This document shows, piece by piece, positions 8,517-47,797 of a stretch of DNA of 64,000 nt. The stretch is taken from contig CAYSPV010000003.1 of NCBI GenBank assembly GCA_964433025.1, positions 1,194 through 65,193 of the forward strand, read 5' to 3'. A program made the position numbers and the translations under genes. How positions within the stretch are numbered: position 1 is the first letter of the stretch; every line of letters begins with the position of its first letter. The notes under the pieces are model-generated. The model was given only the letters and a program-made list of their open reading frames with translations, searched no databases and was not told the origin of the DNA. The stretch is from an uncultured Staphylococcaceae bacterium (GTDB taxonomy: Bacteria; Bacillota_I; Bacilli_A; RFN20; CAG-826).

Positions 8517-8590
8517 GCCCCATTAGTTAAATGGCATAACGGATCCATGGTAAGGATCTATTCGTAGTTCGATTCTGCGATGGGGCACCA
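8517..8590 (+). tRNA. tRNA-Thr (anticodon GGT), 74 nt with an encoded CCA.
   Basis: Manual cloverleaf: acceptor GCCCCAT/ATGGGGC; D stem GTTA/TAAC; anticodon stem GATCC/GGATC with loop ATGGTAA; T arm CGTAG-TTCGATT-CTGCG; discriminator A plus CCA. Confidence 0.85.
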
Positions 8591-8597
8591 TAAATAA

Positions 8598-8619
8598 GGT
8601 CTTGTAAAAGACTTTTTTT
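8598..8619 (+). terminator. Rho-independent terminator after the tRNA (stem GTCTT / AAGAC, then T7).
   Basis: Hairpin GTCTTgtaaAAGAC followed by TTTTTTT. Confidence 0.55.
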
Positions 8620-8678
8620 GTTGTGTTATGAAGTTCGTTATGTTTCAAAAATAGTGCACCCACATAATAAGACCTTAT

Positions 8679-9653
8679 TTGTTTATAACTTCATGTTATA
8701 ATCAAAACATGAAAAGTAGTGCCACTAAAAGATTTAAAAGTAATCCGTATATTCCTAAATTCATCCTTAAAAATTTTTGTTTTGAAGGTAATAAGATTAA
8801 TTGTTATTCAAAAAAAGAAAATAAAGTCACTATTAAAGATATTGATGAAGCATTTAAAGATTATTTTTTAGAGGCGTTTGATGGATATGATTGGCCTTTG
8901 CTACTTAGTTTAGGGGACGGTATAAAAAAGTATGAAAAAGAGATGTATTCTTTATTTAAAAATAAAATATTAAATAAAAAGAAAAGAATAGTTTTAACAA
9001 AAGCAGAAATTGATAGTATAAAATATTTTTTCGCTTTAATATCGTTTAGAACAAAACTTAATGTAGGTGATTTTTTAGCTTTTTCTAAAGAATCAAAGTC
9101 ATGGTTTACGTGGTGGAGAGATAATGATTACGATGACTATACAGGAGGTTTTTGGCTAAGACATTTAAGTCGAATTTATCAGTGTAGATCGTTAAAAGAA
9201 ATGCTTAATAACGATAAAATTGCTGAACCTTTTAAAGTATATTTCAAATTAAAAACAGAAGGTTTGTTTGGAACTTATCTTTCTTTTATGACGAAATCTT
9301 TTCCAGAAAGTTGTTTTGAATTTTATATAGGTGAAAATTATCCAACTTTTATACCAAGTAAACTAAACCCAGATTTTGTAATATTGGGTATTATTCCTAT
9401 AAGTCCAGAACTTCTTATACTTTTAATTTCAAAAGGCGATGAAAAGAGTCGTGTTTTTGAAGAAGACATTATAAAAGATGCAAAAGATCTATTTATGGAA
9501 CCTACTTATGATGATGACAATGACACTTATATTCACATAATTAAAAATATAAAACATGCATATAATGATTTAATGGCTGAGATTGATATACGCAACGATT
9601 TTAATTATTTTAAAAATCGATATGAGCACATACTTTGGACAGTAAATGAATAA
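8679..9653 (+). CDS. DUF4238-like protein (a defense-island-associated family). The more likely start is the ATG at 8709 (MKSSATKRF...).
   Basis: The N-terminal motif NPYIPKFILKNF resembles the DUF4238 HxVPqFyLrnF signature. The track uses a TTG at 8679. An extended -10 TGTTATAAT (8693-8701) lies 7 nt upstream of ATG 8709, consistent with a leaderless mRNA. Confidence 0.55.
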   Translation: MFITSCYNQNMKSSATKRFKSNPYIPKFILKNFCFEGNKINCYSKKENKVTIKDIDEAFKDYFLEAFDGYDWPLLLSLGDGIKKYEKEMYSLFKNKILNKKKRIVLTKAEIDSIKYFFALISFRTKLNVGDFLAFSKESKSWFTWWRDNDYDDYTGGFWLRHLSRIYQCRSLKEMLNNDKIAEPFKVYFKLKTEGLFGTYLSFMTKSFPESCFEFYIGENYPTFIPSKLNPDFVILGIIPISPELLILLISKGDEKSRVFEEDIIKDAKDLFMEPTYDDDNDTYIHIIKNIKHAYNDLMAEIDIRNDFNYFKNRYEHILWTVNE

Positions 9654-9679
9654 TTATTTCAAATTAATAAATGGTGTTT

Positions 9680-9697
9680 AAAGTCTTATAAGACTTT
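9680..9697. terminator. Perfect 18-bp palindrome AAAGTCTTATAAGACTTT between the convergent DUF4238 and dinJ-like genes (bidirectional terminator).
   Basis: Perfect hairpin flanked by A/T runs, sitting exactly between two convergent stop codons. Confidence 0.55.
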
Positions 9698-9698
9698 C

Positions 9699-9959
9699 TT
9701 ATTTCTTTGCTAATTCTTTATATGCTTCTAGGTTTTCTTCAATTTTTTCTTTTGCAATCTTTTTAACAAGATTATCTGGAAGATATTCTACTGTAGACTT
9801 TTTACGTTTAATTTCAAATGGAACAGCTTGGTCTCTTATAGCTTGTCTAAAAAACATATTAACCGCAGCAGATAATGATAGTCCAAAATCTCCAAATAAT
9901 TCTTCAACTTCATTTTTTAAATCTTTATCTATACGTATTGTGATATTAACATTTCCCAT
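9699..9959 (-). CDS. RelB/DinJ-family (RHH) antitoxin-like protein, 87 aa, with no adjacent toxin gene.
   Basis: MGNVNITIRIDKDLKNEVEELFGDFGLSLSAAVNMFFRQAIRD matches the DinJ/RelB N-terminal RHH. The true start is the internal Met preceded by AAGGAGGG. The track's longer ORF (to 10046) has no RBS. Confidence 0.7.
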   Translation of the reverse strand: MGNVNITIRIDKDLKNEVEELFGDFGLSLSAAVNMFFRQAIRDQAVPFEIKRKKSTVEYLPDNLVKKIAKEKIEENLEAYKELAKK

Positions 9960-10139
9960 AAATTGCCCTCCTTTATACATACAATGTAATACAAATAGTG
10001 GACAAAATAAATATACATAATGTGTATTGTACATATTTTGACACATGGTATTTAAGGAATACCGCTGTGATGAAATATATGCTAATATTTATATAGAGAT
10101 TTATTCTATAAATCTATCTTAGAAAGAATATCATCTATC

Positions 10140-11000
10140 ATGACTAAACAACTAAATCAAAAACTACAAGATTATTTAAATAAAAATGGTTTTAATTTAA
10201 ATTTTGAATTTATCAATTCATATGAAAATGATTATTTTAAAAATACATCATTTACATCTAAATATAGATCATGGAATTTATTAATCTTAACAGGTATAAC
10301 TAAAAGTAATAAATCAGATAATAATAAAGATTATGATATAGATCTTATAAATAAAATAACGAAGTTATTATATGAATCTAATGATGAAGATCTAATTAAT
10401 ATAGCCTGGAATACATTTATTAATTATTGTCATGATGATAATAGATATATTTTATATGCCCCAATGAGTAGGGCATATAATCAATATCAATTAAATAAAG
10501 ATAATATATTTAATAATCACACGAATATATTAGAAACAGATAGATTAATATTAAGACCTAATAATGATAAAGATAATAAGATGTGTATAAACACATCTAA
10601 TCCATCATGTATAAGCTTTAATATCTTTAAAAAAGATAATGATGAATTAATAGGTATATATACATTATCTTATAATGATCTTAATGAAGATTATTTAGAT
10701 ATTAATTATTACTTTAAAGATAAAGAATATATAAAAGAATCTATAGATTTATTAGTGGCCGCTCTTAAAGATAAACAAGTTATATTTTATATAGAAAAAC
10801 ATAAAGACTATATATTTGAAGAATATATGCCTAATCCTATATATCTACGTATAGAAGTTCCTTTTGAAGACGAAGATAGAAATAACATAGCTAAAGCATT
10901 AGGCTTTGACTTAGTGGCCACTAAAACTAATGATAGATATTCTGATGAAGATACAAAATTAGAAACAATTAATACATATTTATTAAAGATAAGAGATTAG
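10140..11000 (+). CDS. Paralog 1 of a 4-member family: unknown N-terminal domain (conserved LLYESxDEDLxNIAWNTF) plus a degenerate GNAT (Acetyltransf_3/RimL-like) domain.
   Basis: LETDRLILRP is the classic Acetyltransf_3 N-terminal strand. C-terminal motifs IGxxxL, YYF and AKALGFDLV follow the GNAT fold. No RxxGxG/A acetyl-CoA motif. Confidence 0.6.
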   Translation: MTKQLNQKLQDYLNKNGFNLNFEFINSYENDYFKNTSFTSKYRSWNLLILTGITKSNKSDNNKDYDIDLINKITKLLYESNDEDLINIAWNTFINYCHDDNRYILYAPMSRAYNQYQLNKDNIFNNHTNILETDRLILRPNNDKDNKMCINTSNPSCISFNIFKKDNDELIGIYTLSYNDLNEDYLDINYYFKDKEYIKESIDLLVAALKDKQVIFYIEKHKDYIFEEYMPNPIYLRIEVPFEDEDRNNIAKALGFDLVATKTNDRYSDEDTKLETINTYLLKIRD

Positions 11001-11096
11001 ATTAAGTATTGAATTTATTTATATAAATATAAATGATTTATATGTTTTTATATTGCCCTTTAAATAGGAAAGGTATATGTAAGGGTCAATAAACCC

Positions 11097-11126
11097 TTGA
11101 AAAAAAAAAAAAAAAAAACGTAGAAT
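11097..11126 (+). promoter_or_regulatory. Promoter of the GmrSD-like gene: TTGAAA -N18- TAGAAT, with the spacer made almost entirely of a 19-nt poly(A) tract (11100-11118).
   Basis: -35 at 11097-11102, -10 at 11121-11126, and SD GTGAGGT before ATG 11158. Preceded by the hairpin AAGGGtcaataaaCCCTT (11081-11097). Confidence 0.5.
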
Positions 11127-11157
11127 TTTTTCTTGTAATATTTAGTGAGGTATAAGC

Positions 11158-12948
11158 ATGGGAAAATTTAGCATTATCAGTAACCCAGTTAGTTTTTTTA
11201 TAAGTAATATTGAAGCTGGAGCTTTAGGACTTCCTGAACTTCAACGTCCTTTTGTATGGGAAGATAAAAAAGCTAGAGATCTATTAAAATCTATGCTAAA
11301 TGGTTTTCCTATTGGCTTTATAATTTTATGGAAACAAGATAGTTCAGTACGAACTAAAAAAGTGAATTTAGAAAGTGGAGGTTATAAAGAACCTAATGAA
11401 GTAATTATTGATGGTCAACAAAGATTAACCTCTCTATATTCAATAATTAAAAATCGTGAAATATTTGATAAAAATTACAAAAAAAGAAAAATCATTATTT
11501 CATATAATCCTAATAATGATGAATTAGAAGTTGGCTCAGCGGCACATAAACAATCTCCAGATTGGATTTATAATATATCCGATATTTTTATAAATGATTC
11601 TTATGATGTATGGAATGCATATGTAAAAAGAAAAATAGAATCACTAGAAAGAAATGGTGAAATCATAACTGAAGAATATAAAGAACAATTAAAAAAGAAA
11701 ATATCCGCTAAGATAACTAATTTTAAAAAAACAATTCTTGATTATGATTTACCATATTTACAAATATATAATGATGTCGATGAAGAAGATGTGGCAAATA
11801 TATTTGTAAATATTAATTCTGGTGGCACTAAATTAAATCAATCAGATTTTATATTAACTCTTGTTTCTGTTCATTATCCTGACGGTAGAACACTAATTGA
11901 AAAATTTTGTAGTGATATGACTAAACATTTAGAAGATGAAAGAGAAGATATTTGTAATCCATTATTTAAATTTGAACCCGCTGATATTATAAGAATAGTG
12001 ATGGCGCTTGGATTTAAAAGAGGACGTTTAGTGTATGGCTATAAATTATTAAGAGGCGCGGATTTTGAAAAAAGAGGCGTTATTGATGAAGAATTAAGAA
12101 ATGAAAGATTTAAGGTTTTTGAACAAACATTAAACAAAGTATTAGATCGTAATAATTTTAAAGAATTTTTAAAATGTATTTATAAAAGCGGATTTGCTCA
12201 TAAAGATCTTCTTAGATCAAGAATAAATATTGTATATGCCTATGCTTTTTGGTTAATTGGAAAATATGATTTTAATATCGATATTTCTACTTTAAGTAAG
12301 ACTATAGCAAAATCATTTTATTTCTTTAATTTAACTTCTAGATATAGTGGTTCATTTGAAAGTTTATTTGAAAGTGAATTAAAAAAATTAGATATAGCAG
12401 ATAAAACAAGTGAATCATTTATAGAAATATTAGAAGAAGGACAAAAATTTAAATTAACTGATGATTTCTTTAATATTGAGCTAATTGGAATATTAAAAAA
12501 TACAGGTACATATTCTAGTGAATATAATACATATTACGCTGCTCAAAATATTTTAGAAGCTAAAGTATTATTTTCCAATCCTCAAATAAGTACACTAACA
12601 GCCTATACCCAACCTTTAAGTGGTAATAGAAAAGCAGTGGAATCACATCATTTATTTCCTAAAAATTATCTACATAATTTAGGATATAGAGAAGTTAATA
12701 TAAAAGATTTAGCAAATAGAGCTCTTGTTGAATGGTCAGATAATATGAAAGCCGAAGATAAAGCACCTAAAGATTATTATCCTGAATTTATTAAAAATAT
12801 GACTGAAGATGAAATAAAAAACATGCTTGATCTTAATGCATTACCTGATAATTGGTATGAAATGGAATATCTTGAATTTTTAGATGAAAGAAGAAAACTA
12901 ATAGCCCAAATAATTCGTAGAGGCTATGAAAAATTAAAAAAAGTTTAA
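11158..12948 (+). CDS. GmrSD-family type IV (modification-dependent) restriction endonuclease: N-terminal DUF262 (ParB-like NTPase) plus C-terminal DUF1524 (His-Me finger).
   Basis: DUF262 motifs LPELQRPFVWE and DGQQRLTSL are present. The C-terminal HHLFPKNYL...VEWSDN matches the DUF1524 HNH-like motif. Length is 596 aa. Confidence 0.8.
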   Translation: MGKFSIISNPVSFFISNIEAGALGLPELQRPFVWEDKKARDLLKSMLNGFPIGFIILWKQDSSVRTKKVNLESGGYKEPNEVIIDGQQRLTSLYSIIKNREIFDKNYKKRKIIISYNPNNDELEVGSAAHKQSPDWIYNISDIFINDSYDVWNAYVKRKIESLERNGEIITEEYKEQLKKKISAKITNFKKTILDYDLPYLQIYNDVDEEDVANIFVNINSGGTKLNQSDFILTLVSVHYPDGRTLIEKFCSDMTKHLEDEREDICNPLFKFEPADIIRIVMALGFKRGRLVYGYKLLRGADFEKRGVIDEELRNERFKVFEQTLNKVLDRNNFKEFLKCIYKSGFAHKDLLRSRINIVYAYAFWLIGKYDFNIDISTLSKTIAKSFYFFNLTSRYSGSFESLFESELKKLDIADKTSESFIEILEEGQKFKLTDDFFNIELIGILKNTGTYSSEYNTYYAAQNILEAKVLFSNPQISTLTAYTQPLSGNRKAVESHHLFPKNYLHNLGYREVNIKDLANRALVEWSDNMKAEDKAPKDYYPEFIKNMTEDEIKNMLDLNALPDNWYEMEYLEFLDERRKLIAQIIRRGYEKLKKV

Positions 12949-13062
12949 ATAATAATTATTTAAAGTAATAAACATATAAAGAAATAAAATCTACACAAAA
13001 TAGATCGTTTTAATAATGTCCAATAAACGGTACATGGTGGTTGAGGACCCCTAATAGTGGCG

Positions 13063-13092
13063 TTGACATAAAAAAAAAAAAAAAAGTATTAT
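13063..13092 (+). promoter_or_regulatory. Promoter of paralog 2: TTGACA -N18- TATTAT, with the spacer dominated by a 16-nt poly(A) tract (13070-13085).
   Basis: Perfect -35 at 13063-68 and -10 at 13087-92. The TAATAGTGG box lies immediately upstream. SD AAGGAGGT precedes ATG 13194. Confidence 0.5.
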
Positions 13093-13193
13093 AAACGCGA
13101 TGACATTTCTAGGTAGGAAATTTACATCTTAAGAAGAACAATTGATTTGTTTTTTGATTGAATAAATCAATAGACCAAGGAGGTACTCGGATT

Positions 13194-14153
13194 ATGTTAA
13201 CTGCTGATTTATTTTTAAAACTTAAGGAGTGCTTAAACGAAGAAAAAGTGGATTTTGGATTATATCCTTTTAATCTTCGTTTTGAGGATAATAAAAATCT
13301 TTCTTGGACTGGTAAATATGTATCATTAAACTTACTAGTGCTTACTGGTATTGCTAAATATAATCTATATCTTTTTAATGAGAAAAGTACAAAAATAGAA
13401 GACTATGATATAGATCTTATAAATCAAATCACTAAGTTATTATATGAATCTGGTGATGAAGATTTAAAAAATATAGCCTGGAATACCTTTTTTGAAGATT
13501 GTCAAGATGATGAAAGATTTATTCTTTATAAGGAAATAAATGCTGCTTTAGATGAAAAAGATGAACTATATGAAAAAGGAATAAATTTTAATCATACCAA
13601 AGAATTAGAAACTGAAAATTTGTTAATAAGACCTCAAAGAACTGAAGATAGTGAAATAATAGCAGATGATTTTATTGAATACGACCTTTTCAACATCCAC
13701 CATACAAGCATAGTTTCTACTTGTGATGAAACATGTTGTAGTTTTAATTTATTTTTAAAATCTAGCAATGATTTAATAGGTGCAATAGCGTTTGATTTCG
13801 GTGAAGATCAACTTGATGACAAAATGATGGATGTACATTACTACTTAATGGAAAAATATAAAAATAATATTGAGTATTTAAAAGAAGGATTGCAAGCAAT
13901 AATTAACGCTTTTAGGGAAAGAAAAGTAGTGTTATATTGTGAAAAACATAAAAAGGCAGTGTTTGAAGAATGGATACCAAACCCTGAATTTTTAGCTATA
14001 GAATGTAAAGATGATGACACTAATAGTAATGAAATAGCTAAATACTTAGGATTTGAATTTACTGGTGGTGATACTGAATTCGTATTTTGGGATGATAAAG
14101 ACGACCTAAGAACAAATAAAACAAACATATATCTATTAAAGGTAAATAAATAA
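13194..14153 (+). CDS. Paralog 2: unknown N-terminal domain plus degenerate GNAT domain. The track's ORF starts at 13158, but the RBS supports a start at 13194 (MLTADLFLKLKECL).
   Basis: Shares the N-terminal MLTxxLxxKLxxxL, the LLYESGDEDLKNIAWNTF block, LETENLLIRP and a C-terminal LGFEF with its paralogs. Confidence 0.6.
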   Translation: MLTADLFLKLKECLNEEKVDFGLYPFNLRFEDNKNLSWTGKYVSLNLLVLTGIAKYNLYLFNEKSTKIEDYDIDLINQITKLLYESGDEDLKNIAWNTFFEDCQDDERFILYKEINAALDEKDELYEKGINFNHTKELETENLLIRPQRTEDSEIIADDFIEYDLFNIHHTSIVSTCDETCCSFNLFLKSSNDLIGAIAFDFGEDQLDDKMMDVHYYLMEKYKNNIEYLKEGLQAIINAFRERKVVLYCEKHKKAVFEEWIPNPEFLAIECKDDDTNSNEIAKYLGFEFTGGDTEFVFWDDKDDLRTNKTNIYLLKVNK

Positions 14154-14237
14154 AAATCTTTAATAGTGCTTTAATTTATAAAGAAAGGAACTATACACTA
14201 TGCTAACATATGAATTACTTGAAAAACTTGAAAAATA
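14151..14237 (+). repeat. Direct repeat copy A. Covers the intergenic end and the first 38 nt of paralog 3. Copy B is 15121-15206.
   Basis: TAAAAA(T/A)CTTTAATAGTGC ... AGAAAGGAACTATACACTATGCTAACATATGAATTACTTGAAAAACTTGAAAA is near-identical in both copies. Repeat period is about 970 bp. Confidence 0.7.
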
Positions 14238-15123
14238 TTTAAGAAGGAAAAAAATAATAACAAATGCGTTTTTTAGTATTAATTATTCTACATCTGAAGG
14301 ATACTGGCTACATACATATGAGTCATGGGAATTATTAGCACTTACTGGGATGGCTAAGTATGCAGTTACACCCGATATTACTCCTAATGATGAAGATATT
14401 GAGTTAGCAAATAAAATCGTAAAATTATTATATGAATCTGGTGATGAAGATTTAAAAAATATTGCTTGGACTACATTTGCTCATTATGGAATTTGGGATG
14501 AAAGGTTTGTTCTTTGTAAGGAAATAACTACAGCTTGTCATAAAAAGGGTTATAAGAAAAATTGTAATCGCACTAAAGATATAGGAACAGATAATTTAAT
14601 AATAAGACGTCAAAATGCTAATGATGCTGAAAAAATTAAAGAAGATTCTGAAAATTGTGGTTCATTTATAGATTTCTTCAAATACTCTTCTGTGAGTGAT
14701 GAAACAGAGATTTGTTTTAGTTTATTTTTAAAAACTAATAATGAACTAATAGGTGCATTAGGATTTGACTTCGGTCCTTATCCAAGTGGTGATAAAGCAA
14801 CTATACATTACTATTTATTGGAAAAATATAAAGATAATGTCGAATATATAAAAGAAGCCTTACAAGCAATAATAAACACTATAAAAGAAAGAAAATTTAT
14901 AATCTATGTACAAAAACATAGATATTTTATCTATGAAGAATACGCACCAGATGTCCAATATTTATTAATTGAAAGTATAGGAGATTCTAGTATTGTTTAT
15001 GATAAATTAGCTAAATATTTAGGGTTTGAATTTGTTGGTGCTAGACTTGATGATTATCTTTTATATGGTCTAGATGAAAAAGATAAAACTAATGTATATG
15101 TATTAAAAATAAAAAATAAATAA
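14200..15123 (+). CDS. Paralog 3: unknown N-terminal domain plus degenerate GNAT domain.
   Basis: MLTYELLEKLEKYL; LLYESGDEDLKNIAWTTF; LIIRRQ; LGFEFVG. RBS is AAAGGAA. Confidence 0.6.
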   Translation: MLTYELLEKLEKYLRRKKIITNAFFSINYSTSEGYWLHTYESWELLALTGMAKYAVTPDITPNDEDIELANKIVKLLYESGDEDLKNIAWTTFAHYGIWDERFVLCKEITTACHKKGYKKNCNRTKDIGTDNLIIRRQNANDAEKIKEDSENCGSFIDFFKYSSVSDETEICFSLFLKTNNELIGALGFDFGPYPSGDKATIHYYLLEKYKDNVEYIKEALQAIINTIKERKFIIYVQKHRYFIYEEYAPDVQYLLIESIGDSSIVYDKLAKYLGFEFVGARLDDYLLYGLDEKDKTNVYVLKIKNK

Positions 15124-15206
15124 AAAACTTTAATAGTGCAAAAAATATTAAGAAAGGAACTATACACTATGCTAACATATGAATTACTTGAAAAACTTGA
15201 AAATTA
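15121..15206 (+). repeat. Direct repeat copy B (5' end of paralog 4 and its upstream region).
   Basis: See copy A. Identical stretches are 14181-14237 and 15150-15206. Confidence 0.7.
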
Positions 15207-16110
15207 TCTAAAAAGTAAAGGATTGAATTATGAATTTAATTCTTACAATTACGAGGATAAAAGTTTTTTCTCTGGGAGAACATGGACTGACAAATATGTG
15301 TCTTGGAATTTGTTGATACTTACTGATATTATTAAAAACAATATATTAAATTCTGATGGCTCACAATCTCCAATATATAATATTGAATTAATAAATAAAA
15401 TCACTAAGTTGTTGTATGAATCAGGCGATGAGGATTTAAAAAATATAGCCTGGAATACTTTTTTTGACCTGTCGGATGATGAAAGATTTATTCTCCATGA
15501 GGAAATGAACTCTGCTTTTAATAAATGGCTTTTCGAACCAAGGGTTACCAATCACACTGATAAATTAGAGACGCCTAATTTAATAATAAAAGCAAATAAT
15601 AAAGAAGATTCCAAAAAATTAAAAGCTTATATAGATAAATATGATTCTGAGAATAAAAGACCATACTATAGAATGATTCGTGACTATGATGCCAACACAA
15701 ATCTCTGTTTTAATTTATTTTTAAAATCTAGTAATAAAATAATCGGTTTTATTGTTTTATATTTTGAAAAATATCCTAATGAAGAAAAAGCATATTTAGA
15801 TTTTTATTTAAAGAAAAAATATCAAAACAAAATAGACTATTTAAAAGAGGCTTTGACAGAAATAATAAAAGCTTTAAATGAAAGAAAAGTCATGTTTTAT
15901 TGCTATAAACACAAACGATATGTACTTGAAGAATGGATTCCTAATATAAAGGTTTTGTTTATAGAAGATGTTAATAGTGCTTCTGGTGAAGTAGCTAAAG
16001 CGACAGGCTTTGAATTTATTGGGACAAACTCTATTTTTGTATTAGACGAAAAATATGACGGTTTTCTTCATGAAATATGTGATATATACGCTTTAAAACT
16101 AAAAGATTAA
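15169..16110 (+). CDS. Paralog 4: unknown N-terminal domain plus degenerate GNAT domain. The track ORF starts at 15136, but the real start is 15169 (its 5' end is identical to paralog 3).
   Basis: MLTYELLEKLENYL; LLYESGDEDLKNIAWNTF; LETPNLIIK; TGFEFIG. Confidence 0.6.
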   Translation: MLTYELLEKLENYLKSKGLNYEFNSYNYEDKSFFSGRTWTDKYVSWNLLILTDIIKNNILNSDGSQSPIYNIELINKITKLLYESGDEDLKNIAWNTFFDLSDDERFILHEEMNSAFNKWLFEPRVTNHTDKLETPNLIIKANNKEDSKKLKAYIDKYDSENKRPYYRMIRDYDANTNLCFNLFLKSSNKIIGFIVLYFEKYPNEEKAYLDFYLKKKYQNKIDYLKEALTEIIKALNERKVMFYCYKHKRYVLEEWIPNIKVLFIEDVNSASGEVAKATGFEFIGTNSIFVLDEKYDGFLHEICDIYALKLKD

Positions 16111-16177
16111 TAAATCTATTAAGAATAATAATATAAGCAGACCAAAAAAAATCATTTAAACAAAGGAGACTAATAAT

Positions 16178-17971
16178 ATGGAAGTAGATAATCAATACAT
16201 AGTTTCAGAATTACAAGCAAGGCAAACTGACACCGCAGCTATTAAAAGAAATGACGAAGCTAAAAAAATAAGAGATGAATTTAGATCTAAATTTGGCCCT
16301 GATGTTTTGAAAAACATTAAAGAAGATGAGGTTATTGCAAAGTTGTTTTCAAAAGAAACTGTAAACCGAGACAGCTTGTTTCATTATCTCGAATACAACA
16401 AAAACAACAATCAAGTATTTGGAGGAATAGCTGGCGGTAATGATAGAAAATGCATTTGTAAATATGATAGAAATAGCAAGACATGGGTTTTTTATGAAAG
16501 TAGTGGGCAAAAAGAAATATCTGAAGATGGCGCAATTAAATACAGCATGGAGATAATAGATACATTAATAAAATCTTGCGAAATAGTAGATAAACATTAC
16601 AGCAACAATGAAATTGATTATTCAAGTTTATATGAAGAATTTGAAAAAGAATTTGCTAATAATGATATTGGTAAAATCGTCATAAAACAACTATGGTTTA
16701 TGAAATATCTCAATATGCTATATCCTAATTTATTAGTTAGTTGGTATAACGAATATATGTTAGATCAACCTATTAAGTACTTGGAAATTTCAGATGGAAA
16801 TATCGATATAACTAGTGAATACAAAAGAAGATTTATTAAAAATGGATCTATCGCAAATTTTTGTAGAAATCATAGTATTTCAACTGATATTTTCTATTAC
16901 CTAATGCAGTGGGAACGAATCCCAGGCGTGAGAATAAAAACAAAAAAAGAAGGAAATAAAGAAATGGAGGATAATATTCAAAAAGCTACTACAAATAACA
17001 ACGAAACACCAATTAATAAAGAAAAAGCTAAAGGCGAAAACCTTATCGTCTATGGTGTCCCTGGTGTAGGTAAAAGCCATTATGTAGATGAAGAATACAA
17101 ATTAAAAGGTGTAAATAAAAATTTCTTTGAAAGAGTAGTGTTCCATCCTGACTACACCTATTCAGATTTTGTAGGACAAATTATGCCTAATGTGGATGAA
17201 AATGGCAAACTAACTTATAAATTTGAACCAGGACCATTTACACGTATTTTAGCAAGAGCAATAAATGATACAGAAAATAAGTATTATCTAGTTATTGAAG
17301 AAATCAACAGGGGTAATGCTGCGGCAATATTTGGTGATATATTCCAATTATTAGATAGAGAAAAAGATGGTACAGGTAGATATGATATAACAAATAAAGA
17401 TATCGCTAAAGAAGTTTATGGTTCTAGTGATAGTAATAAAAAAATACGTATACCATCTAATTTAAGTATTATTGCTACGATGAATACATCTGATCAAAAT
17501 GTATATACATTAGATACTGCATTTCAAAGAAGATGGAAAATGCATTTAATTCCTAATAAGTTTAAAGAAGATAAAACTGATAAAAATTATATCGGAAATG
17601 TCGAATTATTCGATAGTGGTATTACCTGGAGAGAATTCTGTGAAAAAGTTAATAAAAAAATATTAGATAATAATTCTTCATATATCTCTACAGAAGACAA
17701 ACGTTTAGGTATTCATTTTGTAAGTAGAGAAGAAATTGAAAAGACTGAAGCTAAACAAGCTTTTGCAGAAAAAGTCTTAAAATATCTATGGGATGACGCT
17801 TTTAAAAATAATAGAGAAGAATTATTTAATAAGAACTGCGAATCTTTAGAAGATGTCATAGATAAATTTAAAGATAGTAAAGATAATGGATTTGCTGCTG
17901 TATTAAATATTGAGTTTAATGACGTAAACAATGAAAGCAGTGATAATACCACAAATGAAGAATCAAATTAG
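16178..17971 (+). CDS. McrB-like AAA+ GTPase of a McrBC-type type IV restriction system, with an unrecognised N-terminal domain of about 290 aa.
   Basis: Walker A YGVPGVGKSH. McrB signatures IEEINRGNAAAIFGDIFQLLDRE and IIATMNTSDQNVYTLDTAFQRRW are present. RBS is AAAGGAG. Confidence 0.85.
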   Translation: MEVDNQYIVSELQARQTDTAAIKRNDEAKKIRDEFRSKFGPDVLKNIKEDEVIAKLFSKETVNRDSLFHYLEYNKNNNQVFGGIAGGNDRKCICKYDRNSKTWVFYESSGQKEISEDGAIKYSMEIIDTLIKSCEIVDKHYSNNEIDYSSLYEEFEKEFANNDIGKIVIKQLWFMKYLNMLYPNLLVSWYNEYMLDQPIKYLEISDGNIDITSEYKRRFIKNGSIANFCRNHSISTDIFYYLMQWERIPGVRIKTKKEGNKEMEDNIQKATTNNNETPINKEKAKGENLIVYGVPGVGKSHYVDEEYKLKGVNKNFFERVVFHPDYTYSDFVGQIMPNVDENGKLTYKFEPGPFTRILARAINDTENKYYLVIEEINRGNAAAIFGDIFQLLDREKDGTGRYDITNKDIAKEVYGSSDSNKKIRIPSNLSIIATMNTSDQNVYTLDTAFQRRWKMHLIPNKFKEDKTDKNYIGNVELFDSGITWREFCEKVNKKILDNNSSYISTEDKRLGIHFVSREEIEKTEAKQAFAEKVLKYLWDDAFKNNREELFNKNCESLEDVIDKFKDSKDNGFAAVLNIEFNDVNNESSDNTTNEESN

Positions 17972-19178
17972 AATAGAAAAAGATTTAGATTATGTTGGTT
18001 TAAAGAGTGACGATAAAGAATTTATCTTCGCTTTTCCTTATGGTTATAATTTTGGAAATAAAGAAGATCGTATACTAAATAAAGAAGATTATATATTAAG
18101 AAAAGATATTAAGAAGATAATGTCTGTTATTCGTAAATGTAAGAAGGCTAATCCTCTTAGTATAAACGGATCTGAAGATGATAATGATAATCTACCTTTT
18201 GAGGATTATATTTATTTAATTGAGTATTATTTACAGCATAATAGATGTTATTACATGGAAAAAGAAATATCTTATCGTAATGATACAAGAGGTAAGATAG
18301 ATTGGTCTAAAACTATTAAAAGAAATAAACCTTATATACAAGACGATGAAATCGTCTATTTAAAACAAACTATTAGAGAAAGTAAGTTATTAGATAATAC
18401 TTTAATTACAGAATTACATAAATACTGTACGATTGAATCTATTAATAAATTAGGTTTTTTATATGGTGTAGAAACCAAAGATAAAAGTAGTTTAAAAATA
18501 GATGAAAAGAACAAGAACATGTATATTCAAATCATACATAAATACATGTCTAAGACTCATGATAATAATAAGATTAGACTATTCAGTGCGATGATTAATG
18601 TTATAAACAACATCGATACTAAAGATAAATCAGTTAATTATTACACTGAAGAGTTTCGTACTGTATGGGAGTATATGATCGATAATGTCTATGGTATTAA
18701 GAATAAGAATGAGTATTATCCTCATGGTAAATATAAAGGTAAAGAAGAAAAAAAGATTGACGAAGATGAAAAAGAACAAAAAGAAAAACAAAAGACCGCT
18801 TTAAGACCTGATAGTATTATGAAATTAAATAATGAATATTATGTTTTAGATGCTAAATATTATAAAGAAGGTAATTTACCTAATTCATCTGATATAAACA
18901 AGCAAATTACTTATGCTGAAAAAGTAAAATATAAAGAAGAATTAGATGATCTTTATAATGCATTTATATTACCTTATGATGGCAAAGGTGTTGATAACAT
19001 TAAATTTGATACATACGGATATGGTGATTGGTATAAATTAAATAAAAACTATCATCGTGTAGCGGTCATCTATATGGACACTAAATATCTTTTGGATATT
19101 TATAATAAAACTAGTGAGAAGATAAAACATCAAAAAGATTTAGCTAAAGAAATTCAAAAAATACAAGAGGCAAAATGA
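17931..19178 (+). CDS. McrC-like nuclease subunit (PD-D/ExK). It overlaps the McrB gene by 41 nt.
   Basis: C-terminal LRPDSIMKLNNEYYVLDAKYYKEG matches the McrC PD...D-x-K core. Position and coupling to McrB fit. Confidence 0.7.
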   Translation: MKAVIIPQMKNQIRIEKDLDYVGLKSDDKEFIFAFPYGYNFGNKEDRILNKEDYILRKDIKKIMSVIRKCKKANPLSINGSEDDNDNLPFEDYIYLIEYYLQHNRCYYMEKEISYRNDTRGKIDWSKTIKRNKPYIQDDEIVYLKQTIRESKLLDNTLITELHKYCTIESINKLGFLYGVETKDKSSLKIDEKNKNMYIQIIHKYMSKTHDNNKIRLFSAMINVINNIDTKDKSVNYYTEEFRTVWEYMIDNVYGIKNKNEYYPHGKYKGKEEKKIDEDEKEQKEKQKTALRPDSIMKLNNEYYVLDAKYYKEGNLPNSSDINKQITYAEKVKYKEELDDLYNAFILPYDGKGVDNIKFDTYGYGDWYKLNKNYHRVAVIYMDTKYLLDIYNKTSEKIKHQKDLAKEIQKIQEAK

Positions 19179-19300: not shown

Positions 19301-20503
19301 GTGTGTATAATAATTTCTATGAATTCAATTAAACGCGTAAACGGAATGAAAGTAATTAAGAAATGGAATTTAGGTCTATTCATTTCACTTATATTAATGA
19401 TACTTGCTGTTGGTGGTACAATAGCCCTTTTATATTTACTTCCAATTACAGTATTCTCATATCCTAATCAAGATAGTACTTATGAAGTATATGCTTCTGA
19501 TTTTATATTCTTCGCTGCTCAAGATTGGTTAGGTACAGATAATATTAATGATGCATTCTTTAGATTTAAAAATTATGGTTTAGATGTCTTAATACCTTCT
19601 GATTTAAATAGCATTGTATTTGTTATTATATACGCTATTGCGGGACTTTTAGCAGTAGTAGGTGTATTTGCTGTTATATGTGTAATCATATTCTTATGTG
19701 GTTTATTATTTGGGGTTATTAAAGGCAATTGGAAAGCTATGAAAGTAATGACATGGCTAGTATTTGCTTTTATGTTTATAGTAGCCTTAATATTTGCCGC
19801 TTTAAAGCTATGCTTTATGTATATGCTTACTGAATATGGTGTTGTTTATTATGATATGGATATTTGGAATCTTGTTTATATAGTAGCAGGTCTATTAGTG
19901 TTTGGTATTATCCAATCTATCGTGTACTCTATATGCTTTAAAGATCGTATTTATATTAAAGACGCTAAACGTATATTAGAAGCTCAAAAACAAAGACAAG
20001 AAATGATGCAACAACAAATGTATCCTCAAGGCTTTGCTATGCCAATGCCTATGGTTATGAATGCTCCTAATTATCAAATGGCGCCTACTCAAAATCAAGT
20101 AACACCAACCCAAACTCAACCAATTAAAACTAATCCTACTGTAGTTACTCAAGTTAAATATTCTGCAGGTAAAGGTTTACCTGAACAAATATCTTCTATT
20201 GGTGGACATGCGTTTAGTCAAAACGCTAATCTTGAAGTGGCTATTATTCCTTTAGGAATAAAAGAAATAGGACCATCAGCGTTTTCTAACTGTCCTAATT
20301 TAAAAGTTGTCTCTATTCCTACATCGGTAATTAAGATTGGTTATAATGCTTTCTTTGGCTGTAAGAAATTAGCTAGAATTAATTATGGTGGACGTAAAAA
20401 TGAATGGAAAAACATTACTAGAGGTTCAAATTGGCTCGCTAGTAGCGGTACTTCCGTAGTAGTGTGTGTTGATGGCGCAATCACTGTTAATCCTTATCAT
20501 TAA
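19301..20503 (+). CDS. Polytopic membrane protein with a P/Q/M-rich linker and C-terminal BspA-type leucine-rich repeats (LRR_5). The real start is probably 19346 (MKVIKK), because a TGTGTATAAT -10 ends at 19300.
   Basis: N-terminal TM helices are followed by repeated units such as IPLGIKEIGPSAFSNCPNLKVVSIPTSVIKIGYNAFFGCKKL. Confidence 0.6.
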   Translation: MCIIISMNSIKRVNGMKVIKKWNLGLFISLILMILAVGGTIALLYLLPITVFSYPNQDSTYEVYASDFIFFAAQDWLGTDNINDAFFRFKNYGLDVLIPSDLNSIVFVIIYAIAGLLAVVGVFAVICVIIFLCGLLFGVIKGNWKAMKVMTWLVFAFMFIVALIFAALKLCFMYMLTEYGVVYYDMDIWNLVYIVAGLLVFGIIQSIVYSICFKDRIYIKDAKRILEAQKQRQEMMQQQMYPQGFAMPMPMVMNAPNYQMAPTQNQVTPTQTQPIKTNPTVVTQVKYSAGKGLPEQISSIGGHAFSQNANLEVAIIPLGIKEIGPSAFSNCPNLKVVSIPTSVIKIGYNAFFGCKKLARINYGGRKNEWKNITRGSNWLASSGTSVVVCVDGAITVNPYH

Positions 20504-28386: not shown

Positions 28387-29580
28387 TTAAACTTTTAAAA
28401 TCATCTTAATGTGTTTTATATTAACTTCTTTAAATGGTTTTCCTACACATTTAAAATTATATTTTTCATATAGGTATTTATATTGATATTGAGCATTAAC
28501 TTCAATAGTGATAGGGGTATACATCTTTTTAATATGTTTAATTAAAAATTTAATTAACTGTGATGCATATCCTTTATTTCTATATTTAGGAAGTATAGCT
28601 AGTCTTTGTATATAAATAACATCATCTTCTTTTAATAATCTAAATGTACCAATACATTTTTCTTTTAATAAGATTAAATAAGAATCAGAATTAATTTCTT
28701 CATCTTTAACAAATTCTTTGTTATAGGGAATATTTTCTTCTTTTATAAATACTTGTAATCTGATATTTAATTCATCTATATAGTCTTGTTTATCATATAC
28801 AGGTTTAATAGTTAAACCTTTTTGATTTATTTGAATAGCAGAGTGCATGTCCCAAAGATTATATTGTTTTTTATTATCTAATAAAGTTAAAAAATTCTTC
28901 TTTGATGGTGAAAACTCTTTATAGATTTGGTTCACTAATGTTTTTATATCTTCTCTAGTAGTATGTTTATCAGCAGGACAAGATGAACCAATAACATTTA
29001 TTTTTTCTTCTTTAATTAGTTTTTTAATATCTTCTTCATAAACAAATATAAATGGTCTAATAAATGTTACATCATCTTTTGATAGATGCATTTTAGGAGA
29101 GAATGTCGCTACTTTTCCTGAATAAAACATATTCATAAATAAAGTCTCAATTGCGTCATCTAGGTGGTGGGCAAAGGCGACTTTATTAAACTTTAATCTT
29201 TTAGCCACTTTATCTATACAAGCTTTTTTCATTTTAGAACATATAGAACAAGGTAAATGGTTTAATTTTTGTAAGACTTGTTGTTTAGCTAAAATAGGAT
29301 ATACAGTCTTACAATCTTCAATAATTAATTCATACCCTAAATTTTTACAAAAATTAATGACATTATCAAAATTAGAATTAGGAAATCCTAAATCTAAAAG
29401 CACTGGTTGTAATTTAAATTTAGTATGCTCAAATTTGCTATAAATATCTAAAGCATAAAATAACGCTAGGGAGTCTTTACCTCCAGATATTCCTACAACA
29501 ACTTTATCATTAATTTCAAATAGATTATATTTTTGATCGGCTTGACGAATACAGGCTAGTAGGGTTCTAATTGCTTTCAT
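28387..29580 (-). CDS. Fusion protein: N-terminal PP-loop ATPase (TtcA/TilS-like tRNA-modification fold) plus C-terminal GNAT acetyltransferase domain.
   Basis: PP-loop SGGKDS; cysteine motifs CSICSK and SSCP; C-terminal GNAT motif A IQRLAILPKYRNKGYASQLI. Confidence 0.7.
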   Translation of the reverse strand: MKAIRTLLACIRQADQKYNLFEINDKVVVGISGGKDSLALFYALDIYSKFEHTKFKLQPVLLDLGFPNSNFDNVINFCKNLGYELIIEDCKTVYPILAKQQVLQKLNHLPCSICSKMKKACIDKVAKRLKFNKVAFAHHLDDAIETLFMNMFYSGKVATFSPKMHLSKDDVTFIRPFIFVYEEDIKKLIKEEKINVIGSSCPADKHTTREDIKTLVNQIYKEFSPSKKNFLTLLDNKKQYNLWDMHSAIQINQKGLTIKPVYDKQDYIDELNIRLQVFIKEENIPYNKEFVKDEEINSDSYLILLKEKCIGTFRLLKEDDVIYIQRLAILPKYRNKGYASQLIKFLIKHIKKMYTPITIEVNAQYQYKYLYEKYNFKCVGKPFKEVNIKHIKMILKV

Positions 29581-46048: not shown

Positions 46049-47797
46049 TTAATAAGAAGTAAAGAAGATGTTATCCCAGGCTGCTTCATCAACGACCCAT
46101 ACTTCAATCATAAGAGCCATGATGCCAGTACCATAACGACCGCTGACGACATCTGTCATAACGACTTCGTTAGTAGTGGAATTACCATAAGCGGTGTAAT
46201 AAGCACCTGTAGTAGTACTATAATAAACACCAGTATAGCCTTGTTCCCAACCTTCTGCTTCATCTAAGACATCTGCTAATTCATAGAATGCACTACGTAA
46301 GGTAGTTAATGTAGCATCACTAGTAGTATCATCGGTGTAATACCAAATAGTGAATGTTTCAAGTAATGAACTATAGCTTACGCCTCCATTTTCATAACCT
46401 AAATAGGTGGTTTCATCAGTACGATCTAAATAAGTTAAACCATATGGATAAGCATTATCATCAACAGTGATTTCATTTTCAAAATCAGGTAAGGCAGTTT
46501 GCCAGTCACTATCACCAGTATAACCATCAATAGTTAATCTACCAGAGGCAATATAACTATTAACTGCACTTTCATAATTACTAAATAATGAATCAAATGA
46601 GCCACCAGCAATAATAGAAGGATTACCAGTGATAATTACGATTTCAATATAACACATAGTTTCTTCAATACCGATAGCAATATCACCTGCGCTACCTTCT
46701 ACTGGATAATATTCAGCATAAGTACCATCATTAGTGTATTCTTCTAAACCATCAATGTTTTGGAAATAACTCACTAATTCAGAGAAGGCAGTACTAGTAG
46801 TAGAGCCAGTAATTAAAGAAGTGTTATAGGTATAAGCCATAATAGAGAATTGACCATAATCTTCATAGTAATAATCATCTAAATAATAAGAATAGATGGT
46901 ATCAACTGCGATAGATTCTGGCATAAATGCAGCTTCATCACCAATAACATAAGATTCTACTGCACTCATAATAGCAGTACCTCTATCATCATCAGTAAAG
47001 ACGGATACACTTGTTTCGCCAGCATAAGCAAGAGCTATATCAGAAAATAAGAATCCAGATTCACCATTGATATAGTGGTAATTAAAATAACCAGAAATAG
47101 CATCGCCAGCTTGTAAGCTTGCAAAGTATTGGTTAAAGGTTAAAACTTCAGTTCTAGTTAATGTTGCAGGAACATAAACTGGCATTAAGAAGTAGTTATA
47201 TACATTATCAGTGTCAGTATCTTCACCAGGGAATGTGACATAAAATGTTTTACTTTCACCATAAGTTAAAATGCCAACATCTTCCGCTAATTGGAGAGTA
47301 ACACCTAAAACGGTACCAGATAATGTTCTAGAAACTAGACTATCAAAATAAGAACGATAAGTTGCATAATAATAGAAAGAAAAATCACCTTCATCTACCA
47401 ATTCTGCAACTGCGTCTAATAATACGATACGTCCTTCGACTGTACCAATAGTGCCAGTAACATTAATTTCATTTCCAACTGTATAAGAATTATCATAACC
47501 TTCAATAAACACTTGGATAGAGTAAATGGCACTGTCAACTTGCATGACATAAACGCTTTCTTCTAAATTACCAATAACGGTAACATTTTGGAAGGTAACA
47601 TAAGCGCCTATAGCATCAGGTTGATTATTGTCAGAGTCCCACACTAAAACATCTGAAATAGTAGTAACTGTTGGACCAGTTTCAGTAGAGGTACTAGTTA
47701 CATCAACTGAACTGCTATCCGCATTAGTGGTACAACCCGCTAATGCAACGACTGCTAAGACAGATACGGCAAGACTTTTCAATATGTTTTTCTTCAT
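46049..47797 (-). CDS. Lipoprotein (signal peptide plus lipobox LAGC). The mature part is extremely acidic and Tyr/Thr/Gly/Asp-rich, and it is essentially lysine-free.
   Basis: MKKNILKSLAVSVLAVVALAGC lipobox. Only one Lys in about 560 mature residues. Local GC is about 40% versus about 27% for neighbouring genes. Confidence 0.75.
   Translation of the reverse strand: MKKNILKSLAVSVLAVVALAGCTTNADSSSVDVTSTSTETGPTVTTISDVLVWDSDNNQPDAIGAYVTFQNVTVIGNLEESVYVMQVDSAIYSIQVFIEGYDNSYTVGNEINVTGTIGTVEGRIVLLDAVAELVDEGDFSFYYYATYRSYFDSLVSRTLSGTVLGVTLQLAEDVGILTYGESKTFYVTFPGEDTDTDNVYNYFLMPVYVPATLTRTEVLTFNQYFASLQAGDAISGYFNYHYINGESGFLFSDIALAYAGETSVSVFTDDDRGTAIMSAVESYVIGDEAAFMPESIAVDTIYSYYLDDYYYEDYGQFSIMAYTYNTSLITGSTTSTAFSELVSYFQNIDGLEEYTNDGTYAEYYPVEGSAGDIAIGIEETMCYIEIVIITGNPSIIAGGSFDSLFSNYESAVNSYIASGRLTIDGYTGDSDWQTALPDFENEITVDDNAYPYGLTYLDRTDETTYLGYENGGVSYSSLLETFTIWYYTDDTTSDATLTTLRSAFYELADVLDEAEGWEQGYTGVYYSTTTGAYYTAYGNSTTNEVVMTDVVSGRYGTGIMALMIEVWVVDEAAWDNIFFTSY

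Follow-up and report, generated by a model that had tools for sequence, protein, structure and literature searches.

In the LlaJI restriction system of Lactococcus lactis pNP40 the genes run M1-M2-R1-R2, and there, as in the LlaJI locus of Treponema, two 5-methylcytosine (m5C) methyltransferase genes lie immediately 5' of R1. LlaJI.R1 binds DNA site-specifically via a B3-type domain, and the N-terminal domains of the McrB superfamily determine target specificity (PMC7680126). The McrBC systems of Escherichia coli and Thermococcus gammatolerans combine a McrB-type GTPase motor with a PD-(D/E)xK partner and have no linked methyltransferase, and BrxU (PDB 7p9k) is a 587-residue protein with a DUF262 domain that carries QR and DGQQR motifs. 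Here we compare with these systems an island of nine genes at 8.6-19.2 kb of a 64 kb window (the whole stretch of DNA analysed, from contig CAYSPV010000003.1 of an uncultured bacterium). We put the probability at roughly 0.6 that this island is a mosaic of independent defence modules in a recombination hotspot, in which the effectors are a GmrSD-like protein and a methyltransferase-free LlaJI-type nuclease, both probably phase-variable, and in which four GNAT-like paralogs are non-catalytic. Such an island would have been assembled from independently acting modules and not delivered as one mobile element. An earlier note, made from the letters of the window, had called the segment a defence island, and its content agrees with that description: a GmrSD/BrxU-like protein, a GTPase and a nuclease of the McrBC superfamily, a DUF4238 protein and an orphan antitoxin. 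Each of the nine genes lies where that note had placed it, between flanks of housekeeping genes.

The last two genes of the island, R1 (16178-17971, + strand) and R2 (17931-19178, + strand), had been described as a type IV McrBC pair. The kind of machine was recognised correctly, with a McrB-type AAA+ GTPase motor in R1 and a McrC-like PD-(D/E)xK nuclease in R2, but by their sequences the two proteins belong to the LlaJI R1/R2 lineage, and type IV behaviour is a prediction. Over its motor (residues ~248-570), R1 shares 49-53% identity with LlaJI.R1 of Lactococcus (49%), Lactiplantibacillus and Treponema. R1 matches the PADLOC REase_II model PDLC03547 at 2.8e-91, AAA_5 at 7e-13 and the McrB motors of PDB entries 6ut3 and 6hz4 at E values of 1e-18 to 1e-21; against the NCBIfam McrB equivalog NF008457 it scores 66.6 bits, far under the cut-off of 637. 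R2 is 34% identical to LlaJI.R2 of pNP40 with 94% of its length covered, and it matches the PADLOC type II restriction-enzyme model PDLC03549 (1.6e-55) and Pfam RE_LlaJI (PF09563; 92.2 bits versus a cut-off of 23.6, E 4.9e-26). The Pfam McrBC model (PF10117) gave no match to R2 at E ≤ 0.01. As in LlaJI, R1 and R2 are adjacent and in the same order, and they overlap, here by 41 nt. Both proteins are full-length, and Walker A, Walker B, the McrB signature and PD-DxK (PD...DAK in R2) are intact by eye.

Two features separate the pair from LlaJI. In the position of the two m5C methyltransferase genes the window has three GNAT-like paralogs. Across the 64 kb no open reading frame (ORF) of at least 100 residues carries a DNA methyltransferase motif, and the sole S-adenosylmethionine-dependent methyltransferase in the window is RsmF. 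The first ~245 residues of R1, moreover, are unrelated to LlaJI.R1: residues 1-245 gave no alignment to the three LlaJI.R1 proteins, to Pfam or to PDB chains, and R1 also differs from McrBC in that it has no DUF3578 or YTH reader domain, just as R2 falls in the RE_LlaJI and not the Pfam McrBC family. The sole homolog detected for this domain is the N-terminus of a 788-residue McrB-like protein of Azospirillum brasilense (23% identity, E 4e-6; NZ_CP059450.1, contig L022, 5878-9553), a protein with an extra middle region whose gene is followed by one for a Pfam-McrBC protein and then by a type III-like Mod gene. PLSDB carries no annotation for this Azospirillum region. A look-up of the R1 N-domain in a set of 5.8 billion proteins returned nothing, the parent protein included, which makes that negative unreliable.

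Since N-terminal domains set target specificity in this superfamily, we infer that R1R2 may be a LlaJI-lineage machine refitted with a different reader, its DNA-recognition domain having been swapped for one otherwise carried by a classical McrB. It would act without protective methylation of the host, because no methyltransferase is linked to it and because its N-domain is otherwise seen on a classical McrB. R1R2 is thus most likely, to judge from its sequence, a modification-dependent (type IV-like) enzyme, and in the proposed mechanism it would serve as the GTP-driven, LlaJI-type McrB/McrC-like translocase-nuclease that is the effector of a paralog2-paralog3-paralog4-R1-R2 operon. A LlaJI-type motor-nuclease that has no methyltransferases and a swapped reader would amount to a natural experiment in the interconversion of type II-like and type IV-like McrBC machines.

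The second predicted effector is encoded at 11158-12948 (+ strand). It had been annotated as a GmrSD-like enzyme with DUF262 and DUF1524 halves, and the first half was borne out: GmrSD_N/DUF262 (PF03235) scores 107.5 bits against a cut-off of 33.2 (E 1.2e-30), whereas DUF1524 went undetected by Pfam. The protein is collinear with BrxU over its whole length (E 1.5e-8), has a similar length (596 residues versus 587) and shares the QR and DGQQR motifs of the DUF262 domain; it differs from BrxU in that sequence identity is low and the gene lies outside any BREX locus. The best PADLOC model is the candidate HEC-05 (1e-28) and not a named GmrSD model. At the C-terminus an ESHHLFP...N...N motif was identified by eye, and the alignment to the C-terminus of BrxU is collinear but weak, a pattern that may indicate a His-Me finger nuclease half. 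The ratio of nonsynonymous to synonymous substitution rates (dN/dS) between this gene and its counterpart in a close relative described below is 0.03. As a module of the island, the protein would couple a ParB-like DUF262 NTPase domain to a probable His-Me finger and cut modified phage DNA.

Both effectors lie downstream of promoter-like sites with homopolymeric spacers. The first, TTGAAA-N18-TAGAAT at 11097-11126 (+ strand), is 32 nt 5' of the GmrSD-like gene and has an A19 spacer (11100-11118). The second, TTGACA-N18-TATTAT at 13063-13092 (+ strand), is about 100 nt 5' of paralog 2, has an A16 spacer (13070-13085) and is the best-scoring site of the 12 kb scanned, with 11 of 12 consensus matches. 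A19 and A16 thus occupy the spacers of the two top-scoring + strand promoter-like sites. No other A/T run in the 64 kb exceeds 8 nt, runs of 9-15 nt being absent, and the number of runs of at least 16 nt expected by chance is ~0.01-0.02. In the close relative the tract before the GmrSD-like gene reads C+A16, so that the spacer is 2 nt shorter within near-identical flanks. No + strand terminator-like site was found between the 13063-13092 promoter and position 19406, and paralogs 2-4 with R1R2 plausibly form one transcription unit.

The vlp promoters of Mycoplasma hyorhinis have poly-A spacers and are phase-variable. The sites described here resemble them in having poly-A between -35-like and -10-like hexamers, in belonging to an AT-rich organism and in being polymorphic in length between strains; they differ in preceding nuclease or defence genes in place of surface lipoproteins. 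By this analogy the promoters of the GmrSD-like gene and of the paralog-R1R2 unit are probably phase-variable by slipped-strand changes in tract length. Slippage in the poly-A tracts would alter the spacers and turn expression of the two units on or off in subpopulations, which would limit the cost of autoimmunity. The poly-A spacers suggest in this way that the lineage controls the cost of methyltransferase-free nucleases through phase variation.

A different account of the same features is that R1R2 is the decaying orphan of a LlaJI-type type II system that lost its methyltransferases, silent or inactive, and that the poly-A tracts are mutational debris. It would fit with the lack of a methyltransferase in the window, with the non-optimal 18-nt spacing of both promoters and with the decay of many genes of such neighbourhoods in related metagenomes. 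However, R1 and R2 are full-length with catalytic motifs intact by eye, and the motor of R1 retains 49-53% identity to a functional LlaJI.R1. Elsewhere the genome keeps its A/T runs to 8 nt or less, so that debris is also an unlikely source for two tracts of 16-19 nt that coincide precisely with promoter spacers. Decay of R1R2 thus appears very improbable.

Homopolymers of another base, poly-G tracts of variable length, occur at promoter-like positions in related gut contigs that carry relatives of the paralogs. At one such site, which precedes a collagen-like gene, the tract is G9 in one contig (L010, 269-277) and G11 in another (L011, 5195-5205), and a G10 run (L016, 11678-11687) lies inside a TTGACT-N17-TATAAT sequence. 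These tracts suggest that the lineage makes habitual use of homopolymer phase variation.

The four paralogs, all on the + strand, are encoded at 10140-11000 (paralog 1), 13194-14153 (paralog 2, P0002), 14200-15123 (paralog 3, P0003) and 15172-16110 (paralog 4), and each of paralogs 2-4 shares 37-43% identity with paralog 1. When 5.8 billion proteins were searched with a word index, the window paralogs were the only matches. Among 1.84 billion representatives a HMMER profile recovered 94 relatives at E ≤ 1e-3, mostly of ~300 residues and with the same two-part layout. The description of the paralogs as an uncharacterised and diversifying family, given in the earlier note, is borne out, and the family varies between strains. 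A 57-sequence family alignment was the basis for motif counts and for an AlphaFold2 model of paralog 4, which reached a predicted local distance difference test score (pLDDT) of 91.2 and a predicted TM-score of 0.87 and in which ~125 N-terminal residues form a helical domain that packs against a RimL-like GNAT fold. An earlier model built from four sequences was discarded (pLDDT 62). Foldseek matched the C-terminal half of the paralog 4 model alone to RimL, RimJ and MccE in the PDB at 3e-9 to 1e-6. The C-terminal ~185 residues of the paralogs share the fold of these acetyltransferases, and the wider family keeps their YRxxGYxKEA motif A; the paralogs differ from them in the extra ~125-residue helical N-domain and in ~20 inserted residues that follow helix alpha3. 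For the N-domain, neither Pfam nor PDB sequences nor viral models offered a relative.

The earlier name of GNAT paralogs is consequently apt for the fold, but not for the acetyl-CoA motif, which is lost in all four, and only paralog 4 reaches the cut-off of Pfam Acetyltransf_3 (PF13302; 26-28 bits versus 25.4). In the wider family that model matches 54 of 57 members. The R-x-x-G core of GNAT motif A (R/Q-x-x-G-x-G/A, the loop that binds the pyrophosphate of acetyl-CoA) is likewise kept in 50 of 57 family members and in none of the four window paralogs. Its place, the CoA loop, is taken by KNNIEY in paralog 2 and by KDNVEY and QNKIDY in the other two of the three paralogs with a one-residue insertion, and the alignment places a 5-residue deletion there in paralog 1. 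The acetyl-CoA-binding motif A being lost throughout, classical acetyl-CoA binding is unlikely, and the window paralogs are most likely non-catalytic binding proteins, as far as their sequences indicate. These genes show no decay: paralog 1 is under purifying selection, with a dN/dS of 0.16 against its ortholog in the close relative, and values between paralogs are 0.35-0.84 with dS close to saturation. We infer that the paralogs derive from a rare, defence-island-associated family of RimL-like acyltransferases.

The company that this family keeps in other genomes bears on its role. Counting the window as one, six of seven informative contexts are defence neighbourhoods, and contigs on which family members have defence-gene neighbours are L006, L007, L010-15, L016 and L023. 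The member P0005 sits in a conserved block of T5orf172 (PADLOC PDC-S57), PDDEXK_4 (PDC-S26), DUF4177, the family member and a further PDDEXK_4, and this block adjoins either a type I restriction-modification system or a MazG-like gene with a Schlafen-type helicase. P0006 comes after a type I restriction-modification locus with spare hsdS genes and a resolvase, P0095 has AbiTii two genes downstream in one short gene cluster, and P0008 is flanked by an AAA_21 ATPase and by AbiEii with a STAND NTPase. A further family copy, frameshifted and fragmented, stands immediately after a type III restriction-modification system and a T5orf172/GIY-YIG gene on a contig from the human gut (L006, 9888-10480); several metagenomic representatives are also truncated (P0011, P0015, P0018, P0019 and P0022). 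Tandem duplication recurs in the family beyond the window genome, with two tandem paralogs on one short contig (P0009; L024, 3-1902) that are 60% identical and keep an RRKGY motif. A conserved partner gene for the family was considered and rejected, as the unknown proteins upstream of the members in L007 and L016 are unrelated. A phage origin was not borne out either: the family has no relative in IMG/VR, no PHROG match and no plasmid match.

These data also bear on the possibility that the paralogs are passengers unrelated to phage defence, RimL/MccE-like detoxifying or modifying proteins (acting, for example, against aminoacyl-nucleotide antibiotics) that share the recombination hotspot. By structure paralog 4 comes closest to RimL, RimJ and MccE, the acetyltransferase of microcin C immunity, and the wider family mostly keeps a catalytic-looking motif A. 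One informative context, L017, is metabolic, and on the short contig L008 the only neighbour is flavodoxin-like; no PADLOC or PHROGs model covers the family, and no member was found in viral contigs. On the other hand, acetyl transfer is unlikely for four copies without a CoA loop, and defence islands make up six of the seven informative contexts. We regard the passenger explanation as unlikely.

Gene order raises another possibility, namely that paralogs 2-4 are functional partners of R1R2 that have taken the place of the methyltransferases in the operon, as self-protection, sensor or specificity subunits whose copy number diversifies the response. Paralogs 2-4 occupy the exact M1/M2 position of the pNP40 and Treponema loci, they are co-directional with R1 at gaps of 46-67 nt with no terminator-like site before R1, and the whole unit stands behind one poly-A promoter. 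The array is still joined to R1 in a variant from SRR7039263. A new function is suggested by the loss of the CoA loop in all four copies when the ORFs are intact and paralog 1 is under purifying selection. Yet no other family member examined adjoins a LlaJI-type pair, no partner gene is conserved across contexts, and the GmrSD-like gene separates paralog 1 from R1R2. We consider such a partnership quite unlikely. Doubtful enough to be offered only as speculation is the idea that paralog2-paralog3-paralog4-R1-R2 is a phase-variable restriction system of a new kind, a LlaJI-derived GTP-dependent nuclease that has shed its methyltransferases and works with pseudo-GNATs, variable in copy number, as sensors, specificity factors or self-protection. 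Were it true, the family with a helical domain and a GNAT fold would be a defence gene family of gut Bacillota that has so far escaped recognition.

Returning to the mosaic of independent modules, strain comparison indicates how the island changes. The closest relative available is a 7,956-nt contig (L005) of the metagenome-assembled genome GCA_964416045.1. It is 96% identical in DNA to window positions 10083-12256, which hold paralog 1 and the 5' part of the GmrSD-like gene, but this similarity ends at a breakpoint 57 nt 5' of paralog 1. Upstream of that point the contig is unrelated to the window and has entirely different genes (HsdM-like, HsdS-like, a second GmrSD of 641 residues, DUF4177 and a different DUF4238), in keeping with the accessory status that had been proposed for the island. 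Positions 185-2484 of this contig hold a gene for a 488-residue protein with NPPY and GxG motifs by eye and no Pfam match, followed by an HsdS-like ORF that is broken by an assembly gap; they may represent a divergent methyltransferase of type I or IIG.

A second variant comes from SRR7039263 (contig L001). It matches window positions 15215-16266, with paralog 4 and the beginning of R1, at 100% identity. In this contig the gene that precedes paralog 4 has a C-terminal protein sequence identical to that of paralog 2, and so paralog 3 is missing. In the window paralog 3 is flanked by two + strand junction repeats (repeat families D5 and D16), one at the end of paralog 2 and the start of paralog 3 (14144-14250) and one at the end of paralog 3 and the start of paralog 4 (15114-15219). 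They are 93-96% identical over ~100 nt, have a 53-nt identical core and are a likely substrate for the loss of paralog 3 by unequal crossing-over. The sequences indicate that the paralog array varies in copy number between strains.

The earlier note had supposed an old, fixed island, and here it was mistaken: three strain-level variants differ in gene content and in paralog copy number, and the island is therefore turning over. A check of composition that the same note had proposed revealed no difference between the island and its flanks. GC content, GC content at third codon positions (GC3) and codon usage of the island all fall inside the range of the flanking core genes, and a foreign base composition was rejected. 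Homologous recombination with relatives that are AT-rich to a similar degree is the best explanation for the turnover.

Several observations weigh against the interpretation of the island as a mosaic of phase-variable modules with two nuclease effectors. For R1R2, a cognate methyltransferase could lie beyond the 64 kb window, and the tie of the R1 N-domain to classical McrB comes down to one distant match at 23% identity. For the GmrSD-like protein, GmrSD_C/DUF1524 (PF07510) was not detected even at E ≤ 1 on residues 470-596. Operon structure, promoters and phase variation are predictions, and none of the spacers has the optimal 17 nt, being 18 nt at both window sites and 16 nt in L005. The loss of paralog 3 in the SRR7039263 contig could in principle reflect an assembly path across the 53-nt repeat. 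The link of the paralog family to defence is one of guilt by association in only ~7 informative contexts; the context of P0007 (L017) is metabolic, with a transposase in addition, and contigs L008/L009 and L024 (P0030 and P0009) are too short for their contexts to be judged. Finally, an island-free relative was not found for this rarely sampled lineage, and because of this the edges of the island rest on gene function alone.

The island as a whole is familiar in kind, and the majority of its components add new members to families already known. Beyond the routine are a methyltransferase-less LlaJI variant with a foreign N-domain, a near-unknown two-domain family with a degenerate array, and the homopolymer promoters. 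New immune systems are sought chiefly in defence islands, and the lineage from which this one comes is a barely sampled, AT-rich one of the gut. The two-domain family recurs among restriction, Abi and candidate defence genes, and here it is tandem-duplicated and a probable pseudo-enzyme.

Two smaller modules stand at the left of the island. The first gene (8679-9653, + strand) encodes a divergent DUF4238 protein, an assignment made earlier that lies above the Pfam cut-off (PF14022; 37.7 bits versus 27, E 2e-9, profile positions 4-244 of 281). Its ORF opens with TTG, and the true start is likely the ATG at 8709. A single-gene DUF4238 system from a P2 hotspot protected E. coli from T7 (Rousset et al. 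2022, PMC9122126). By comparison with that system the window protein is a weak match to the profile (37.7 bits), and its function as a single-gene defence module would be a prediction from sequence. It has no match in PADLOC or PHROG. The different DUF4238 protein of L005 scores higher (105 bits), and the N-terminal HY(I/V)P-like motif reads PYIP in the window protein and HYIP in that of L005. Small DUF4177 genes of ~60 residues were seen directly beside DUF4238 or members of the paralog family at L005 4669-4851, L010 9779-9964 and L011 5437-5610; no DUF4177 gene is present in the window.

The second small module (9699-9959, - strand) is an 86-residue ribbon-helix-helix antitoxin of the RelB/DinJ type, identified by TIGR02384 (59.6 bits versus a cut-off of 45.65) and Pfam RelB (1.4e-9). 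The earlier description of an antitoxin-like gene without a partner applies to it, as no toxin-sized ORF lies alongside: no plausibly placed ORF of at least 30 residues was found on either side, and the gap to the convergent DUF4238 gene is only 45 nt. The locus thus differs from RelBE and DinJ-YafQ type II toxin-antitoxin systems in that the antitoxin is present and an adjacent toxin gene is absent. The gene is also absent from L005, and within the mosaic this orphan would be a module of its own, probably a remnant or an anti-addiction or regulatory protein. GNAT-RHH toxin-antitoxin pairs raise the question whether the antitoxin could partner the GNAT-like paralog 1. Such a pairing was judged unlikely given that the two genes are divergent; it is further weakened by L005, which keeps paralog 1 without dinJ, and by the lack of a CoA loop in the paralogs.

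Genetic code 11 gives a clean reading of the window, which is AT-rich throughout (GC ~27%). At its left edge the island is marked by tRNA-Thr (anticodon GGU; 8517-8590, + strand; ARAGORN, Rfam tRNA 55.2 bits), the sole tRNA in the window and the only structured RNA that Rfam found in the island. A tRNA-targeted integrative element was rejected, there being neither an att-like repeat nor an integrase. A repeat search that allowed up to 3 mismatches found no second copy of the tRNA 3' end in the window, and no integrase or transposase was found among the window ORFs scanned, both as had been noted by eye; the adjacency of the tRNA is no evidence for tRNA-targeted integration. A search for syntenic contigs based on RimO recovered distant relatives only (57%, 39% and 31% identity), the best of them on a 2.6 kb contig without the tRNA, and exact look-ups of RimO and paralog 2 returned no record. 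The 90%-identity clusters of RimO and IspD are both singletons, which indicates that the organism is almost unsampled.

To the left of the island lie MalQ, an ABC/FtsX fusion and a RimO/MiaB-like radical-SAM enzyme. To the right, past 19.3 kb, follow a BspA-type leucine-rich repeat membrane protein, IspD, two CNNM/CorC proteins, RimP and NusA. The first of these right-flank products (19301-20503) combines several segments predicted to span the membrane with a linker rich in Q, P and M and one BspA-type LRR_5 region, and is probably a surface protein outside the defence set. Other genes of the window are housekeeping ones for translation and RNA processing, among them those for IF-2, TruB, RibF, PNPase, RNase J, FtsK and ComEC. 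Amid these well-annotated genes is a 582-residue ORF (46049-47797, - strand) without a Pfam match at 1e-6. Between infB and truB (28387-29580, - strand), a 397-residue fusion joins a TilS-like PP-loop ATPase (ATP_bind_3) to a C-terminal GNAT domain.

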